A stretch of 15,464 nt of DNA from a virus (IMGVR_UViG_2869953405_000005), one strand, 5' to 3'; shown: positions 1,738 through 10,047, counted from the first letter of the stretch. Numbers and translations: made by a program. Notes: generated by a model not told the origin, from the letters alone.

Positions 1738-1801
1738 TGAGGTAGCCTGAGTTTAACGGACACTCCTTCCTGAAATAGAATGGCATCAGAAGGAGCTAAT
1801 A

Positions 1802-2104
1802 ATGAGCAGAAAAACCCAACGTTACTCTAAAGAGTTCAAAGCCGAAGCTGTCAGAACGGTTCCTGAAAATCAACTTTCGATCAGTGAAGGCGCTTCCCGA
1901 TTATCTCTTCCTGAAGGCACTTTAGGACAATGGGTTACCGCCGCCAGAAAAGGGCTCGGTACTCCTGGTTCCCGCACGGTGGCTGAACTGGAATCTGAAA
2001 TTCTGCAACTGCGTAAGGCGTTAAATGAAGCTCGCCTTGAGCGAGATATATTAAAAAAAGCAACAGCGTATTTTGCACAGGAGTCGCTGAAAAATACGCG
2101 TTAA
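1802..2104 (+). CDS. IS600 OrfA (IS3-family transposase, N-terminal HTH part)
   Basis: 100-aa ORF, identical to ORF 10048..10350; RBS GGAG before the ATG. Confidence 0.9.
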   Translation: MSRKTQRYSKEFKAEAVRTVPENQLSISEGASRLSLPEGTLGQWVTAARKGLGTPGSRTVAELESEILQLRKALNEARLERDILKKATAYFAQESLKNTR

Positions 2105-2139
2105 TCGAACAATGGCGACAACAATTTCCCATTGAAGCG

Positions 2140-2958
2140 ATGTGTCAGGTATTTGGTGTATCCAGGAGCGGTTATTACAACTGGGTACAGCATGAACCCT
2201 CAGACAGAAAACAAAGTGATGAGCGGCTAAAACTGGAGATTAAGGTGGCACATATCCGCACTCGCGAAACATATGGAACCCGGCGGCACCAGACGGAGCT
2301 GGCAGAGAATGGCATCATCGTTGGTCGTGACCGACTGGCACGTCTTCGTAAGGAGCTAAGGCTACGCTGTAAGCAGAAACGCAAGTTCAGAGCGACTACG
2401 AACTCGAACCACAATCTGCCAGTTGCGCCAAATCTGCTGAACCAGACGTTCGCTCCTACAGCACCAAATCAGGTCTGGGTGGCGGACCTGACGTATGTTG
2501 CCACACAGGAGGGATGGTTGTACCTCGCTGGCATCAAAGATGTTTATACGTGCGAAATTGTCGGCTACGCCATGGGAGAGCGCATGACAAAAGAGCTGAC
2601 AGGTAAAGCCCTGTTTATGGCGCTCAGGAGCCAGCGCCCACCTGCCGGGCTAATCCACCACTCTGATCGAGGTTCACAGTACTGCGCATACGATTACCGG
2701 GTCATACAGGAGCAGTCTGGTCTGAAAACATCAATGTCGCGTAAAGGTAACTGTTACGACAACGCTCCGATGGAAAGCTTCTGGGGAACGCTGAAAAATG
2801 AGAGCCTGAGCCACTATCGTTTTAATAACCGGGATGAAGCCATCTCAGTAATACGGGAATACATTGAGATTTTCTACAATCGTCAGCGTCGTCACTCTCG
2901 TCTGGGGAATATCTCCCCGGCAGCCTTCAGGGAAAAATATCATCAGATGGCTGCTTAA
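2140..2958 (+). CDS. IS600 OrfB (DDE transposase catalytic part, normally expressed as OrfAB by -1 frameshift)
   Basis: 272-aa ORF in the -1 frame relative to orfA; integrase-core-like sequence (HSDRGSQY...). Confidence 0.9.
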   Translation: MCQVFGVSRSGYYNWVQHEPSDRKQSDERLKLEIKVAHIRTRETYGTRRHQTELAENGIIVGRDRLARLRKELRLRCKQKRKFRATTNSNHNLPVAPNLLNQTFAPTAPNQVWVADLTYVATQEGWLYLAGIKDVYTCEIVGYAMGERMTKELTGKALFMALRSQRPPAGLIHHSDRGSQYCAYDYRVIQEQSGLKTSMSRKGNCYDNAPMESFWGTLKNESLSHYRFNNRDEAISVIREYIEIFYNRQRRHSRLGNISPAAFREKYHQMAA

Positions 2959-3001
2959 AAAAAGAACAAATGGTAGTGTCCGCTATTGCCAGTACACCTC
3001 A

Positions 3002-3143
3002 GGGTATAAGGGGTTATGGCCACCGGACTACCAAACGGCTGCCAGCCCTCTTTCAGTTTATGTGTCAGCTTTTCCGCAAGATCTGACGGCGGCGCCGCCC
3101 TGACAACATCATAGTGTTTAAATGCCATGGTTCTTTCCACCAT
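3002..3143 (-). pseudogene. N-terminal fragment of a small gene interrupted by the IS600 end
   Basis: Minus-strand ORF MVERTMAFKHYDVVRAAPPSDLAEKLTHKLKEGWQPFGSPVAITPY runs into the IS600 terminus at 3001; GGTGGAAAG precedes the second ATG (3126-3128). Confidence 0.3.
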
Positions 3144-3321
3144 CTGAAAAATAATTCTTTAAAATACCTGACATGTAATACAGAAAAAACACAAAACCAT
3201 ACCTTAAATAAAAACCTGATTATCAAGCAGATATGCATGGATAAACTACAAGACGAGATATAAACCACCCTGCATTTAAATAAACAATAAACAACATCAG
3301 AAAAATAATTCTGCTCTATGG

Positions 3322-3348
3322 TTTACATTCAAAAATATCATTTATACT
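3322..3348 (+). promoter_or_regulatory. candidate sigma70 promoter for ORF 3389..3724 (TTTACA, 15-nt spacer, TATACT)
   Basis: Hexamers read directly from the sequence at 3322-3327 and 3343-3348; spacing is suboptimal at 15 nt. Confidence 0.3.
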
Positions 3349-3388
3349 TTTCAGAACATCACCAGCAAGGCATAAACAAGGAAACTAA

Positions 3389-3724
3389 ATGAAGTGGATT
3401 GTGATTGATACAGTTATCCAGCCATCATGCGGAATATCTTTTTCAGTCATATGGAGTAAAATAAAATTAATAATCTGGTATCAATCGGATGCTTTCTTAC
3501 CTCCTGAAAGTATATTTACACTGACTCACACAGGCATCATGCTCAATAACAAAGTGCTACCTGTAACCATTTACAACGTAGTACCATTCAATAAAACATT
3601 CTGGAATTCAATCAAAAATAGCCAGGAATGCCCTACAAATACAGATAACGTATTGAATGAATGCTTTAATAACCGTTGCACTCTGCAAATATGTCCTTAT
3701 GGACTAAAACAACAAAGTCCATAA
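3389..3724 (+). CDS. hypothetical Cys-rich small protein (111 aa), orphan
   Basis: ATG preceded by AAGGA about 8 nt upstream; 6 of 12 Ile codons are ATA (manual count); C-terminal third has 5 Cys; lies in AT-rich DNA; no family recognised. Confidence 0.45.
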
Positions 3725-3758
3725 GGAGTTTACTCACATCTGACAAAATCAATATAAA

Positions 3759-3780
3759 CAGCCCCTCCGGAGAGGGGCTG
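3759..3780 (-). terminator. intrinsic-terminator-like hairpin (9-bp perfect stem, 4-nt loop) with T-rich tract on the minus strand
   Basis: CAGCCCCTC-CGGA-GAGGGGCTG; on the minus strand it is followed by TTTATATTGATTTTG; no T-tract on the plus strand. Confidence 0.45.
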
Positions 3781-4171
3781 GAGAGTGGCGCTATGTGCCA
3801 TTGCATGGTGCCGGGTGCCTCCCGGTGAATTCAGTACCAGCACCTGAATCCGCGATTATCCCATATACCTACTCGCTGATTGCCCCTCCGCACAGGGGGA
3901 TTCACCATGCCAGTTTCTTTTAACAAACTCCCCGCAAACCAGACAACAGTCAACCGCCTGAATTGTGAAGTATTTAAAAATTTCTCCCGCTAACTGATAC
4001 CCGGCTAACAGTCTGGCGTTTTCTTTTTCAGCAACGGGAAAGCAACAACCACCACACCCGCCACCAGCACACCGTCAGCCAGCACTGACATTATCCGGCT
4101 GCTGCAATGCCATTCACAAAAACAGTAAGCAATCACTTTTTACCGTAACAGGTGATAATCCAGATATGTAT

Positions 4172-4525
4172 CTACCCCAGATGAGTAATCCGAAGTTCAT
4201 CCATACCACAGGTCCTGGCTATTCTGTTGTACTCCTGAACAAGAGCAAATAATTCTGAATTAGCAACCATGAACTCATCGCAAACCCTCTGTATAGCATC
4301 ACTATTCAGAATAATAACGTCTCTTCCCGAAAGACGATCAGGAGTACAGAACAAAACTGTCAAACGGCTGAAGGCCTTTGCTCGTGCTGCATTGACTATA
4401 TCAATACGCTGCCTAAGGATGAAACACCCCGACGCCTCATCAATATTCACTCTACCCACACCATATGAATGATAAATATTTAATGCTGAAAAAACCATTA
4501 GACCGTATAACAAACACTCAATCAA
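4172..4525 (-). CDS. hypothetical protein (117 aa), doubtful
   Basis: ORF opens right after a stop with a TTG at 4525 and no Shine-Dalgarno; first ATG is codon 10; unrecognised; may be a gene remnant. Confidence 0.2.
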   Translation of the reverse strand: MIECLLYGLMVFSALNIYHSYGVGRVNIDEASGCFILRQRIDIVNAARAKAFSRLTVLFCTPDRLSGRDVIILNSDAIQRVCDEFMVANSELFALVQEYNRIARTCGMDELRITHLG

Positions 4526-4635
4526 TACTTAACAGAACTTTTATTTTTGACAAACATAAAATATTTTCAACAATATCCTGAGCCAGGTATATTTCAGTAT
4601 AAGGCTCTGCCGGAAGGAATCTGGAAGAATGAATA

Positions 4636-4712
4636 TGGCGCGCTGTACTGGATTCGAACCAGTGACCGATTGCTTAGAAGGCAATTGCTCTGTCCGGCTG
4701 AGCTAACAACGC
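4636..4712 (-). tRNA. tRNA-Arg (anticodon UCU)
   Basis: 77-nt cloverleaf folded by hand: acceptor GCGTTGT/ACAGCGC, D-stem GCTC/GAGC, anticodon stem ATTGC/GCAAT with loop CTTCTAA, T-arm ACTGG-TTCGAAT-CCAGT, encoded CCA. Confidence 0.85.
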
Positions 4713-4812
4713 TGAATACCGATAATGGACCGCCATCGGGGACCCGCCCCCGCACCAACAACCCTGTTATCGTGTCGTCTGCTCTTCCTGATAAGCTAAT
4801 GGCGGTTTGTGA

Positions 4813-4888
4813 TGGTGGCCCTTGCTGGATTTGAACCAGCGACCTGGCGATTATGAGTCGCTCGCTCTCACCACTGAGCTAAAGGGCC
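4813..4888 (-). tRNA. tRNA with CAU anticodon, ileX/ileZ-like (tRNA-Ile2; Met not excluded)
   Basis: 76 nt: acceptor GGCCCTT/AAGGGCC, anticodon loop CTCATAA, T-arm GCTGG-TTCAAAT-CCAGC, encoded CCA; resembles recalled E. coli ileX but diverged. Confidence 0.8.
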
Positions 4889-4924
4889 GGGAGCAGAATA
4901 ATAACGGTCCGTAATTAATTCCGC

Positions 4925-4949
4925 AATAAAAAACCCGCTCGGCGGCGGG
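4925..4949 (-). terminator. intrinsic terminator between Q-like gene and tRNAs (tR'-like candidate)
   Basis: On the minus strand CCCGC-CGCCGA-GCGGG is followed by TTTTTTATTG. Confidence 0.5.
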
Positions 4950-4990
4950 TTGTAGAAACTCTTCTAACGTCAGGCATAAAACGCCCATAG

Positions 4991-5845
4991 TTATGACGAA
5001 TTTACCACAGATTCCGGAAAAATCAACCTAGTTACCTTTTTTAACTGCCGCTCAGCCCATGCTTCTTCAATATCAAACCGAGTCACCAGCGCATCATAGA
5101 ATTTCTTAACTGTTTTTTCCCATGACGCGCGTGTTATCTGGTTTGTCACCTCGCATATAGCATTAAATGCCTCCGTTGATGGTAGTCTTTCATAGCCACG
5201 ACCACCACAACGCTGGCAGTCTCTGATAACAGGCATACCACGTTTTACCGACTCTTCACGATGAATGGCGACACCACGCCCACGGCAATCCTTACAGGCG
5301 GTGGAAACCTCACCCTTTCCGCCACACTCCGGACAGGCAACTTTTACCACCTCCCTGACTTTTTTCCATTCTTCCCAGTAAGACGGATACACACCTTTCG
5401 TACACTTTGCCCATACCGGCGGCTTACCATCCGGATACTGGACCTTGTTTGTAAAAACTACGCTTTCAATAAATTTTTCCCCATAGCAACAAGGGCACTG
5501 CTTTTTACTCGCTGCGCTGCGGGCATAATCCTCAAAAGCGTACGAAGCCATAATGCGCATCACTACCGGTTTTATTTCTGCCGGAAGTTTTCTCAACGCC
5601 GCCACACGATCGCACCGACTGAGTGCATAATCTGCCAGTAATTCTGTTGCCCGCGCCCTGTCATTCATACTGATGCCCATTTTCCCCAGGAACGCAGAAA
5701 ACCCCATCTCAGCCCGATTCTGTGTCATGCCCTGCGCGGCCATCACATCAGTGATACTCAGCGCATCTTTTGACGTTGAGGCCGATGCATCGGTCAGGCA
5801 AGGGGATTTTGGGGAGTAGTATTTCGGTAAATCTTCCAGTTTCAT
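4991..5845 (-). CDS. putative lambdoid late antiterminator Q-like protein (284 aa, DnaJ-type Zn-finger motifs)
   Basis: Sits between rusA and terminator/tRNAs as in lambdoid late-control regions; CPECGGKG, CKDCRGRG and CQRCGGRG motifs; ATGA overlap with the rusA stop; Q assignment rests on position and motifs, not a verified alignment. Confidence 0.5.
   Translation of the reverse strand: MKLEDLPKYYSPKSPCLTDASASTSKDALSITDVMAAQGMTQNRAEMGFSAFLGKMGISMNDRARATELLADYALSRCDRVAALRKLPAEIKPVVMRIMASYAFEDYARSAASKKQCPCCYGEKFIESVVFTNKVQYPDGKPPVWAKCTKGVYPSYWEEWKKVREVVKVACPECGGKGEVSTACKDCRGRGVAIHREESVKRGMPVIRDCQRCGGRGYERLPSTEAFNAICEVTNQITRASWEKTVKKFYDALVTRFDIEEAWAERQLKKVTRLIFPESVVNSS
4999..5026 (-). promoter_or_regulatory. 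candidate late promoter (pR'-like): TTGATT, 16-nt spacer, TAAATT on the minus strand
   Basis: Hexamers read from the sequence; overlaps the 3' end of the Q-like ORF; predicted start lies about 40-60 nt upstream of the terminator at 4925-4949. Confidence 0.25.
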
Positions 5846-6216
5846 TTTTTGACCTGCTCTTCATGCATTATGGGGTAAATCTTCACCCCCAGACGTCCAC
5901 CAGATACTGGCTGACCACGAACGATATTGATTTCATCAAACTGCTCATCGTCCATTAACACTCCCGCATGTGTCAGTGCATCCAGTGGTGCTTTCAGGAT
6001 ATTGTCCAGGTCACGACGGCGCTTATCCGGTGGCTCTGCAATAATCTTTATCGCCAGTCTTCCGGACAGGCTTAATTTCAGTCGCTGCTGACGGACAATA
6101 AGCGCCACATCCCGGCGATAACGCTCACCGGCTTTTGATACAAAATATGTGTTGTCACGACGTCGCCAGTAAGTATTCACCGTCGGCGGATAAGGTAAAA
6201 TAAACTCATGACGCAT
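5842..6216 (-). CDS. rusA: RusA-family Holliday junction resolvase (124 aa)
   Basis: Resembles recalled E. coli RusA (RRRDLDN... motif region); nin-region position upstream of Q. Confidence 0.8.
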   Translation of the reverse strand: MRHEFILPYPPTVNTYWRRRDNTYFVSKAGERYRRDVALIVRQQRLKLSLSGRLAIKIIAEPPDKRRRDLDNILKAPLDALTHAGVLMDDEQFDEINIVRGQPVSGGRLGVKIYPIMHEEQVKK

Positions 6217-6473
6217 CAGCGCAGCACCTCCTGCACCAGTTTTTCAAACTTTCCGACTCTGGTTTCCAGCTCTGCCACACAGTCCACCAGCTCATCTACT
6301 GCTTTCTGTGCGCGATGCTTCGCCTGCATCAGTTCCCGAAGCGCGGGTACCATATCTTTACGGATAGCGTCTTTTGTTATGCCCGTTTTTTCGAGTTGTT
6401 CAGCATGACGCAGCATTTCCTGCGCGTGTTTACGCAATTGTTCAGGGGTAAAAGTCATTGTCTGGTTGTTCAA
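6216..6473 (-). CDS. hypothetical phage nin-region protein (80-85 aa; start ambiguous: TTG at 6473 or ATG at 6458)
   Basis: Stop overlaps the rusA start (TGATG); helical, charged sequence; no family recognised. Confidence 0.45.
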   Translation of the reverse strand: MNNQTMTFTPEQLRKHAQEMLRHAEQLEKTGITKDAIRKDMVPALRELMQAKHRAQKAVDELVDCVAELETRVGKFEKLVQEVLR

Positions 6474-6807: not shown

Positions 6808-8777
<1,970 letters not shown>

Positions 8778-9025: not shown

Positions 9026-9931
9026 GTGGATAGCGCACGCGCCCTTATTGCCCGGGGATGGGGAGTAAGCTTAGTCAGCCGTTGTCTCCGGGTGTCGCGT
9101 GCGCAGTTGCACGTCATTCTCAGACGAACCGATGACTGGATGGATGGCCGCCGCAGTCGTCACACTGATGATACGGATGTGCTTCTCCGTATACACCATG
9201 TTATCGGAGAGCTGCCCACGTATGGTTATCGTCGGGTATGGGCGCTGCTTCGCAGACAGGCAGAACTTGATGGTATGCCTGCGATCAATGCCAAACGTGT
9301 TTACCGGATCATGCGCCAGAATGCGCTGTTGCTTGAGCGAAAACCTGCTGTACCGCCATCGAAACGGGCACATACAGGCAGAGTGGCCGTGAAAGAAAGC
9401 AATCAGCGATGGTGCTCTGACGGGTTCGAGTTCTGCTGTGATAACGGAGAGAGACTGCGTGTCACGTTCGCGCTGGACTGCTGTGATCGTGAGGCACTGC
9501 ACTGGGCGGTGACTACCGGCGGCTTCAACAGTGAAACAGTACAGGACGTCATGCTGGGAGCGGTGGAACGCCGCTTCGGCAACGATCTTCCGTCGTCTCC
9601 AGTGGAGTGGCTGACGGATAATGGTTCATGCTACCGGGCTAATGAAACACGCCAGTTCGCCCGGATGTTGGGACTTGAACCGAAGAACACGGCGGTGCGG
9701 AGTCCGGAGAGTAACGGAATAGCAGAGAGCTTCGTGAAAACGATAAAGCGTGACTACATCAGTATCATGCCCAAACCAGACGGGTTAACGGCAGCAAAGA
9801 ACCTTGCAGAGGCGTTCGAGCATTATAACGAATGGCATCCGCATAGTGCGCTGGGTTATCGCTCGCCACGGGAATATCTGCGGCAGCGGGCTTGTAATGG
9901 GTTAAGTGATAACAGATGTCTGGAAATATAG
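9026..9931 (+). CDS. insD: IS2 InsD (orfB, DDE transposase part)
   Basis: 301-aa ORF matching recalled IS2 InsD; overlaps the insC end at the A6G frameshift site. Confidence 0.9.
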
Positions 9932-10047
9932 GGGCAAATCCAGTCCGTTATAAAAACGCCGGTAAATCGTTCCCAGAGAACCGTGAGGTAGCCTGAGTTT
10001 AACGGACACTCCTTCCTGAAATAGAATGGCATCAGAAGGAGCTAATA

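Follow-up and report, generated by a model that had tools for sequence, protein, structure and literature searches.

What is the GC-rich island next to a small hydrophobic open reading frame, in the midst of AT-rich DNA, on this stretch of viral sequence (IMGVR_UViG_2869953405_000005; 15,464 nucleotides, here called the window)? An original prediction had taken the island for a structured RNA and the reading frame for a small membrane peptide, possibly a type I toxin. We identified the island as a copy of STnc100, an already described small regulatory RNA (sRNA) of lambda-like prophages, and we read the small open reading frame as a gene fragment, the 3' part of tciB, probably left by modular recombination. 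The whole explanation, an STnc100 gene and a truncated tciB remnant in the cargo slot of a prophage, has in our estimate a probability of about 0.88. The comparisons below establish the family membership of both features, the structure of the RNA, the genomic slot, and the truncation junction and its spread among genomes. Both features are real and both are members of described families; the finding is an ordinary one, already known. It carries little weight as a discovery: the sRNA family is curated in Rfam and has been detected experimentally in EHEC, with its relative PasD detected in EPEC, and DUF3927, to which the small ORF belongs, is a catalogued family of unknown function.

The island is distinct in composition, as had been noted. 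The GC content is 0.525 in 3700-3899, compared with 0.30-0.36 in 3100-3699 and 0.33-0.43 in 4100-4599. It had also been noted that no long ORF covers the island, and only chance ORFs of 20-50 amino acids overlap it. On the minus strand, the island and its borders match the curated Rfam family STnc100 over model positions 1-206 of 206. That is, the match is not truncated, and its score of 132.4 bits compares with a gathering score of 47. The GC content of the matched stretch is 55%. The suggestion of a structured RNA was therefore correct. A search of Rfam had been proposed along with it, and a match there had been listed as an outcome that would count against the prediction; the search gave just such a match, to RF02076. 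The parts of the sRNA gene are as follows.

3750 to 3939, minus strand: full-length match to STnc100 (Rfam RF02076, 132.4 bits, E = 1.7e-29).
3752 to 3910, minus strand: predicted sRNA proper, about 160 nt (from the fold, the alignment and the 5' ends of PasD1 and PasD2).
3917 to 3946, minus strand: predicted sigma-70 promoter (from reading of the sequence, conservation and the PasD loci).
3781 to 3802, minus strand: linker from the structured domain to the terminator (AAUGGCACAUAGCGCCACUCUC), a candidate seed (from its variability and the position of the PasD seed).
3750 to 3780, minus strand: Rho-independent terminator (from a terminator scan and the Rfam consensus).

STnc100 is widespread in phages of this kind. 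Diverged copies (68-100% identity) are present in 284 phage records, mostly Stx-converting phages. In eight loci that we fetched, STnc100 scored 143-208 bits and was directly 3' of stx2B, stx1B, a tRNA-Arg gene or Q, and 5' of the nanS-p esterase gene. Homologues in 20 other lambdoid phage or prophage loci scored 114-208 bits. Across the homologues the slot is the same: after stx2B, stx1B, a tRNA gene, Q or tciB, and before nanS-p or the lysis genes. In the copy of the window the variable hairpin is shortened, and few of the loci examined score as low against the Rfam model.

Several members of the family have been characterized. EcOnc27 (strain Sakai), also called sRNA103 (EDL933), is an Hfq-binding RNA directly 3' of stx2B that is overlapped by STnc100, and its overexpression increased the levels of the fimZ and espA transcripts (PMC12711010, PMC7873438). 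The evidence for EcOnc27 comes from Hfq-CRAC and a Northern blot. EDL933 contains 11 copies of STnc100; transcription of these has been detected, with confirmation by Northern blot for one (PMC5331693). STnc100 has been found in outer-membrane vesicles of STEC (PMC12370729), ChIP-exo in Salmonella revealed sigma-factor binding at copies of STnc100, and publications discuss the family as one that marks Stx-type prophages. A 2026 preprint assigns a common ancestry to STnc100 and PasD1 and PasD2 of EPEC. The stability of PasD1 and PasD2 depends on Hfq, and their targets have been identified by RIL-seq (PMC8550237). By analogy, the RNA in the window would act like EcOnc27/sRNA103 and PasD1/2, as an Hfq-bound, trans-acting, base-pairing sRNA. 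Its dependence on Hfq is something we infer from these homologues.

We compared the copy in the window to both types of relative. It shares with STnc100/EcOnc27/sRNA103 the full-length covariance-model match, the helices, the terminator and the position, with the late promoter, Q, tRNA or cargo genes on one side and nanS-p or lysis genes on the other. The 5' structured domain of the VT2-Sakai copy, after stx2B, is nearly identical to that of the window. In contrast, the cargo upstream of EcOnc27/sRNA103 is stx2B, and in the window it is a truncated tciB. Hairpin 2, which is variable, is shorter in the window, and the linker is of the AAUGGCACAUAGCGCCACUCUCC variant rather than that of VT2-Sakai. 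In addition, AsxR adjoins STnc100 in VT2-Sakai as a convergent partner, whereas the window has no such partner: Rfam, searched at E values up to 10, gave no AsxR/AgvB convergent anti-sRNA on either strand of 3300-4650. An EHEC-type 'dyad' with AsxR was thus rejected; an iraM-like gene occupies the convergent position instead.

PasD1 and PasD2 (EPEC E2348/69; homologues of EHEC EcOnc13) are like the window RNA in being directly 3' of a DUF3927 gene. The gap between that gene and the sRNA is 41 nt at PasD1 and PasD2 and ~95 nt in the window. They share with it the 5' sequence GCAUGGUGAAUCC, the first hairpin, the geometry of the promoter, and a common plan of structured domain, linker and terminator. 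In contrast, PasD falls below the STnc100 gathering score and has its own 3' half and terminator, so that only the 5' part of the alignment is common. We looked in the window RNA for the PasD seed, UGUGAG, and for a PasD-type 3' half. Neither was present; the linker reads AAUGGCACAUAGCGCCACUCUC.

The sequence in the window is predicted to fold as the family does. Its layout is a closing helix around four hairpins, then a linker, then the terminator. The closing helix has 8 bp, GCAUGGUG (3910-3903) paired with CACCAUGC (3810-3803). The 161-nt RNA from 3910 to 3750 has a predicted free energy of -69.5 kcal/mol (z = -2.96), and none of 200 shuffled sequences was as stable. Its minimum free energy structure is the same as the centroid structure and reproduces all of the family helices. 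An alignment of nine sequences gave a consensus of five helices: the closing helix, CCCCC/GGGGG, GGAUUCAG/CUGAAUUC, CCGGG/CCCGG, and the terminator hairpin. Structure and covariation had been proposed as a check on the original prediction. In the consensus fold, 99.1% of the cells were paired, compared with 38-51% when the partners were slid, and there were compensatory changes at 3 pairs. Covariation was modest because most pairs never vary. In a 17-sequence alignment, one pair in hairpin 3 appears as four standard pair types. There are G-U pairs at several positions, one of them in all nine sequences (9/9). On the plus strand these would be A-C mismatches, and therefore the RNA strand is the minus strand.

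The nested inverted repeats that had first drawn attention to the island were partly those of the RNA. The inner one, CCGGG/CCCGG, is an invariant hairpin of the family. The outer pairing, GGTGC...GCACC, is not used by the family structure; one of its arms is in the closing helix GCAUGGUG/CACCAUGC and the other is in the loop of the GGAUUCAG/CUGAAUUC hairpin.

Where the RNA begins can be estimated from PasD. The estimated starts of PasD1 and PasD2 (coordinates from Table S6 of the published paper, PMC8550237) map in E2348/69 to the G of GCATGGTGAATCC in both copies. This G is the first base of the closing helix and is homologous to the G of GCATGGTG in the window. By this homology with the PasD 5' ends, STnc100 would be transcribed from its own extended -10 sigma-70 promoter with a start at ~3910. 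The parts of the predicted promoter are a -35 of TTGTCT (3946-3941), an 18-nt spacer with a TG (3925-3924) inside it, and a -10 of TAAAAG (3922-3917). The TG is one base before the -10, and the start is thereby placed at 3910. The PasD loci have TTGACT, 18 nt and TAAAAA at an equal distance from the estimated 5' end, and a TGTT..AA motif is invariant in all contexts of STnc100. The predicted promoter is weak by consensus, with 4/6 matches in each hexamer and an 18-nt spacer, and a generic promoter scan did not report it. That the 5' end mapped for PasD predicts an extended -10 promoter for STnc100 is a possible lead for sRNA specialists.

The Rfam model begins 28 nt upstream from the inferred start, and the conserved block begins ~65 nt upstream. 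It is therefore possible that there is a longer transcript, or that the RNA is derived or processed from a 3' UTR. The block at 3949-3975 (minus strand; AAATAC.TCACAATTCAG...GTTGA), upstream from the -35, is invariant or nearly so in every context of STnc100, whether the sRNA follows stx2B, stx1B, a tRNA gene, Q or tciB; the PasD loci lack it. The block could be the site of a regulator, it could be a further promoter upstream, or it could belong to a longer transcript.

We noticed one difference between phage types in this region. Compared with the Stx2a-type copy in VT2-Sakai, the Stx2c-type copy has a base change within the predicted -10 run, in the sequence homologous to 3911-3922, and has one T fewer between the -10 and the start. 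A machine-learning study found that deletion of a T at +103 from stx2B separates low-HUS lineages. The published deletion appears to fall between the predicted -10 and the start, with the coordinates not matched base for base.

At its other end, the RNA would form the four-hairpin domain closed by GCAUGGUG/CACCAUGC and stop at the Rho-independent terminator at ~3752. The terminator stem (3780-3759) has 9 pairs, 7 of them G-C, and is followed by UUUAUAUUG; the U-tract is interrupted (UUUAUAUU). Between the structured domain and the terminator is the linker, which varies as a cassette would: there are five unrelated variants in 17 aligned loci, and the structured domain is nearly invariant. The variant in the window, AAUGGCACAUAGCGCCACUCUCC, is shared with an Stx1 phage, phi296, PhiR12_2 and one Stx2a phage. 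The PasD seed UGUGAG is at the equivalent position. Because of this variability and the position of the PasD seed, 3781-3802 is likely the target-pairing region, as judged by sequence comparison. If so, the variable linker, immediately 5' of the terminator, would set the target specificity, and the cassette-like variation is consistent with seed swapping.

The sRNA gene and the small ORF are in what is left of a prophage. Prophage DNA occupies only 2999-6219 of the window and is 98.3% identical to E. coli 042; the 1.3-kb region around the sRNA is 99.5% identical to the prophage of that strain. The features that define the setting are the following.

4991 to 5845, minus strand: Q-type late antiterminator, start of the phage late region (Pfam Antiterm, E = 7e-55; E. 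coli 042 annotation).
4813 to 4888, minus strand: tRNA with a CAT anticodon (Rfam; the identical gene in E. coli 042 is tRNA-Ile by PGAP).
4636 to 4712, minus strand: tRNA-Arg (TCT) (Rfam match).
3389 to 3724, plus strand: iraM-like anti-adapter gene, convergent with the sRNA (NCBIfam NF007393; E. coli 042 annotation).
1738 to 3001: IS3-family element.
6808 to 8777: IS21 istA/istB.

The order of genes in the E. coli 042 prophage is RusA, Q, tRNA-Ile, tRNA-Arg, 'DUF3927 family protein', IraM (on the opposite strand), a DUF1737 remnant, holin and lysozyme. In a lambdoid prophage, this is the cargo slot of the late region. Q and two tRNA genes are 5' of the sRNA on the same strand, and E. coli 042 and the 20 other loci are arranged alike. 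In a scan of the whole window, the only Rfam matches besides STnc100 were the two tRNA genes. As we reconstruct it, a decayed lambda-like prophage would have its cargo ('moron') slot here, with the following order on the minus strand: Q antiterminator, two tRNAs, a gene of PHROG 2873, a 5'-truncated tciB (DUF3927) remnant, and STnc100 with its own terminator.

The iraM-like gene matched NF007393 with E = 4.7e-48 (162 bits; cut-off 121). The hairpin that it shares with STnc100, at 3759-3780, lacks a T-run when read on the plus strand, and therefore transcripts of iraM could run on antisense into STnc100. The same arrangement of iraM and STnc100 is present in an Stx2a phage and at one other locus (L011).

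The prophage remnant is bounded by IS elements, and the sRNA survives within this small remnant. Much of the rest of the window is dense in IS elements; these stretches, together with a NEL ORF, are at 508-1276, 1738-3001, 6808-8777, 9984-12023 and 13713-15464. There are two copies of IS1 that are 99.7% identical, a second IS3-family copy that is split by one IS1, and a further rve-type transposase at 9026-9931. The NEL ORF, an E3 ubiquitin ligase of the IpaH type, runs off the right end of the window. The density of IS elements and the IpaH-type ORF suggest a Shigella-type chromosome.

We turn now to the small ORF and the DNA upstream from it. The features are these.

4005 to 4091, minus strand: the 28-aa ORF of the original prediction, the 3' part of the 43-aa ORF (MSVLADGVLVAGVVVVAFPLLKKKTPDC).
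4005 to 4136, minus strand: 43-aa ORF with a GTG start, 'DUF3927 family protein' by PGAP (Pfam PF13064, PHROG 1470).
4105 to 4622, minus strand: 518-bp segment that replaces tciA and the 5' part of tciB (no homology to tciA-tciB loci).
4172 to 4498, minus strand: 108-aa ORF (PHROG 2873 end to end, E = 3.8e-70).

The translation reported for the 28-aa ORF, MSVLADGVLVAGVVVVAFPLLKKKTPDC, is exact, and its Shine-Dalgarno was rightly called weak: neither of the candidate starts (4091 and 4136) has a good one. The 43-aa ORF matched Pfam DUF3927 (PF13064) with 95.6 bits (cut-off 25; E = 1.7e-27), and the 28-aa reading did so with 58.3 bits (E = 7.3e-16). PHROG 1470, labelled 'TciB-like inhibition of cell division or resistance to colicin', matched only residues 12-40 of the ORF, to profile positions 23-51 of 54 (E = 7.8e-13).

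Full-length members of this family look different. Searching a database brought up 113 relatives, 23-66 aa long and almost all of them from E. coli and Shigella. The full-length forms are 52-57 aa, with two hydrophobic segments joined by a conserved loop, DF-SSRIMSVLADG. In nine genomic places, the full-length gene is in the Q-tRNA-cargo slot and shares 4 nt with the end of a TerB-domain gene of 143 aa. STnc100 is 66 nt downstream from it in all seven of these loci that were scanned (7/7). TciB of P1 (54 aa) matched DUF3927 over the whole profile (E = 7e-31), and in P1 the tciB gene begins at the final base of the TerB-like gene tciA. Both P1 genes were named by homology only, and both are non-essential in P1. 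In E2348/69 a diverged 52-aa DUF3927 gene is 41 nt upstream from each of PasD1 and PasD2. These copies have no TerB gene upstream; that is, the TerB partner is common and not universal. The dN/dS between full-length copies is 0.27-0.61 (from small counts), and copies at high divergence keep the frame and both hydrophobic segments. Based on these values and on this retention, the DUF3927 family is a real coding gene. The membership of P1 TciB was set by a Pfam scan of the fetched P1 tciB. A tblastn search of the phage collection with full-length TciB gave no match, for which the low-complexity filter and the shortness of the query are the probable cause, and PADLOC and PDB sequence searches with TciB, TciA, the PHROG-2873 ORF and IraM returned nothing useful.

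Compared with these, the ORF in the window is missing its front part. By BLAST, DNA homology to full-length tciB loci runs only from 4104 downward, which is codon 25 of 57, and upstream it resumes at the tRNA-Arg gene. Only 4005-4104 of the 43-aa ORF is homologous to tciB, and the first 11 codons have no relation to that gene. Over its last 32 residues (SSRIMSVLADGVLVAGVVVVAFPLLKKK...), the ORF aligns with the conserved loop and the second hydrophobic segment of TciB (P1), DUF3927 and PHROG 1470. In contrast to those proteins, the first hydrophobic segment is missing, so that the hydropathy profile has one hydrophobic segment where full-length copies have two, and there is no TerB-like tciA upstream. 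At 43 aa the ORF is also shorter than the 52-57 aa of the full-length forms. Instead of overlapping tciA, it follows the PHROG-2873 ORF, which ends 35 nt before the GTG. E. coli 042, where the sequence is identical, has no annotated gene for that 108-aa ORF, and phage mEp460_ev081 has only short 'hypothetical' calls there; annotation has probably missed a real phage cargo gene. The replacement segment (4105-4622) is also present in mEp460_ev081. From these alignments, another phage gene would have taken the place of tciA and of codons 1-24 of tciB by recombination, and the small ORF would be the surviving C-terminal transmembrane helix of tciB, not an independent gene.

The junction seen in the window is a common one. 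It was found at at least 99% identity in 1,183 of 5,426 complete E. coli genomes. Because these copies are so nearly identical, their intactness says nothing about selection; the junction is one successful allele. Another remnant 5' of STnc100 has its junction at 4063, has no ATG, and is called as 24 aa. A further remnant in that position is N-terminally truncated and has a C-terminal frameshift. PGAP 'DUF3927 family proteins' of 24-43 aa beside STnc100 can thus be read as truncated tciB remnants (three junction classes examined). We infer that the remnant peptide is without function; its ORF is intact in more than 1,000 genomes and may nonetheless be translated.

The original prediction had likened this ORF to type I toxins and to small regulatory membrane peptides. 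This was not supported, as the ORF is a 5'-truncated remnant of tciB/DUF3927, and intact copies of tciB encode two-helix proteins directly 3' of a TerB-like gene. The window does share with type I toxin-antitoxin loci such as hok/sok a small hydrophobic ORF, a basic tail and a prophage setting (hok/sok itself is present at another place in the related prophage of E. coli 042). In contrast to such loci, it has no antisense or overlapping RNA and no match to a known toxin family in Pfam or PADLOC, and its ORF is a fragment of a larger gene. The search for an antisense partner (Rfam, both strands of 3300-4650, E up to 10) gave no significant match but STnc100, which is downstream from the ORF and co-directional with it. 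We also considered complementarity between STnc100 and the ORF mRNA and rejected it: the duplex energy did not stand out from that of shuffled sequences (fraction 0.23), by a method that is crude when the RNAs are long. No repeats of the ORF region of at least 14 nt were found elsewhere in the window, the PADLOC defence and toxin models did not match the ORF, and DUF3927 was the sole match in a Pfam scan of it. It is quite improbable that the 28- or 43-aa ORF is a functional stand-alone membrane peptide, whether a type I toxin or a regulator. A single hydrophobic helix with a KKK tail would suit such a peptide, as would an intact ORF that PGAP calls a 'DUF3927 family protein' in more than 1,000 genomes and 28-aa versions annotated on hundreds of contigs. 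However, what remains is the C-terminal half of a two-helix protein that has lost both its first helix and its TerB/TciA partner, translation would begin behind a weak Shine-Dalgarno at either start, remnants elsewhere have no ATG or are frameshifted, and the near identity of the copies removes intactness as evidence of selection. The searches for an antisense family, for pairing with STnc100 beyond that of shuffled sequences, for repeats and for known defence or toxin models also go against it. A narrower version, in which the C-terminal helix of tciB is translated from ATG 4091 or GTG 4136 as a single-pass peptide with its own activity, is in our view a long shot. If it were true, the peptide could be a toxin or a dominant-negative partner of intact TciA/TciB from co-resident prophages, and it could be co-regulated with the adjacent sRNA, as the C-terminal helix of tciB adjoins STnc100 in more than 1,000 E. 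coli and Shigella genomes.

Two other readings concern the RNA. The structured element might be mainly a terminator or insulator at the end of a cargo cassette, with the 'sRNA' a stable 3' fragment of transcripts from upstream (tRNA or cargo mRNA) that has little function in trans. It would fit that the element always comes after the cargo slot (stx, tciAB or tRNAs), that a strong terminator hairpin closes it, that the promoter we propose is weak, and that conservation reaches ~65 nt and the Rfam model 28 nt upstream from the inferred start. A plain terminator, however, would not need a four-hairpin domain that is almost invariant despite unrelated flanks. In addition, homologues are bound by Hfq, PasD has defined 5' ends and many RIL-seq targets, and copies of STnc100 in Salmonella have sigma-factor binding by ChIP-exo. 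We consider this reading unlikely, and it is compatible with the one we prefer. The other possibility, that the island encodes a protein on the plus strand, we hardly credit. It comes from a PGAP pseudo-CDS in E. coli 042, a partial 'hypothetical protein' at the equivalent of 3795-3920, with similar calls elsewhere. However, that feature is flagged as incomplete or pseudo, there is only a 42-aa ORF (3795..3923) beneath it, the 132-bit match to an RNA family on the other strand explains the region fully, and substitutions keep the base pairs and not the reading frame. Most likely, the plus-strand pseudogene call over the sRNA is an artefact of an unannotated sRNA gene. For users of the annotation, the plus-strand 'hypothetical protein' pseudogene over the island can be regarded as spurious.

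In a locus from E. coli SCEC020007, we observed two copies of STnc100 in tandem (1365-1558 and 1834-2022 of that locus; 138 and 132 bits) after a degenerate tciB remnant.
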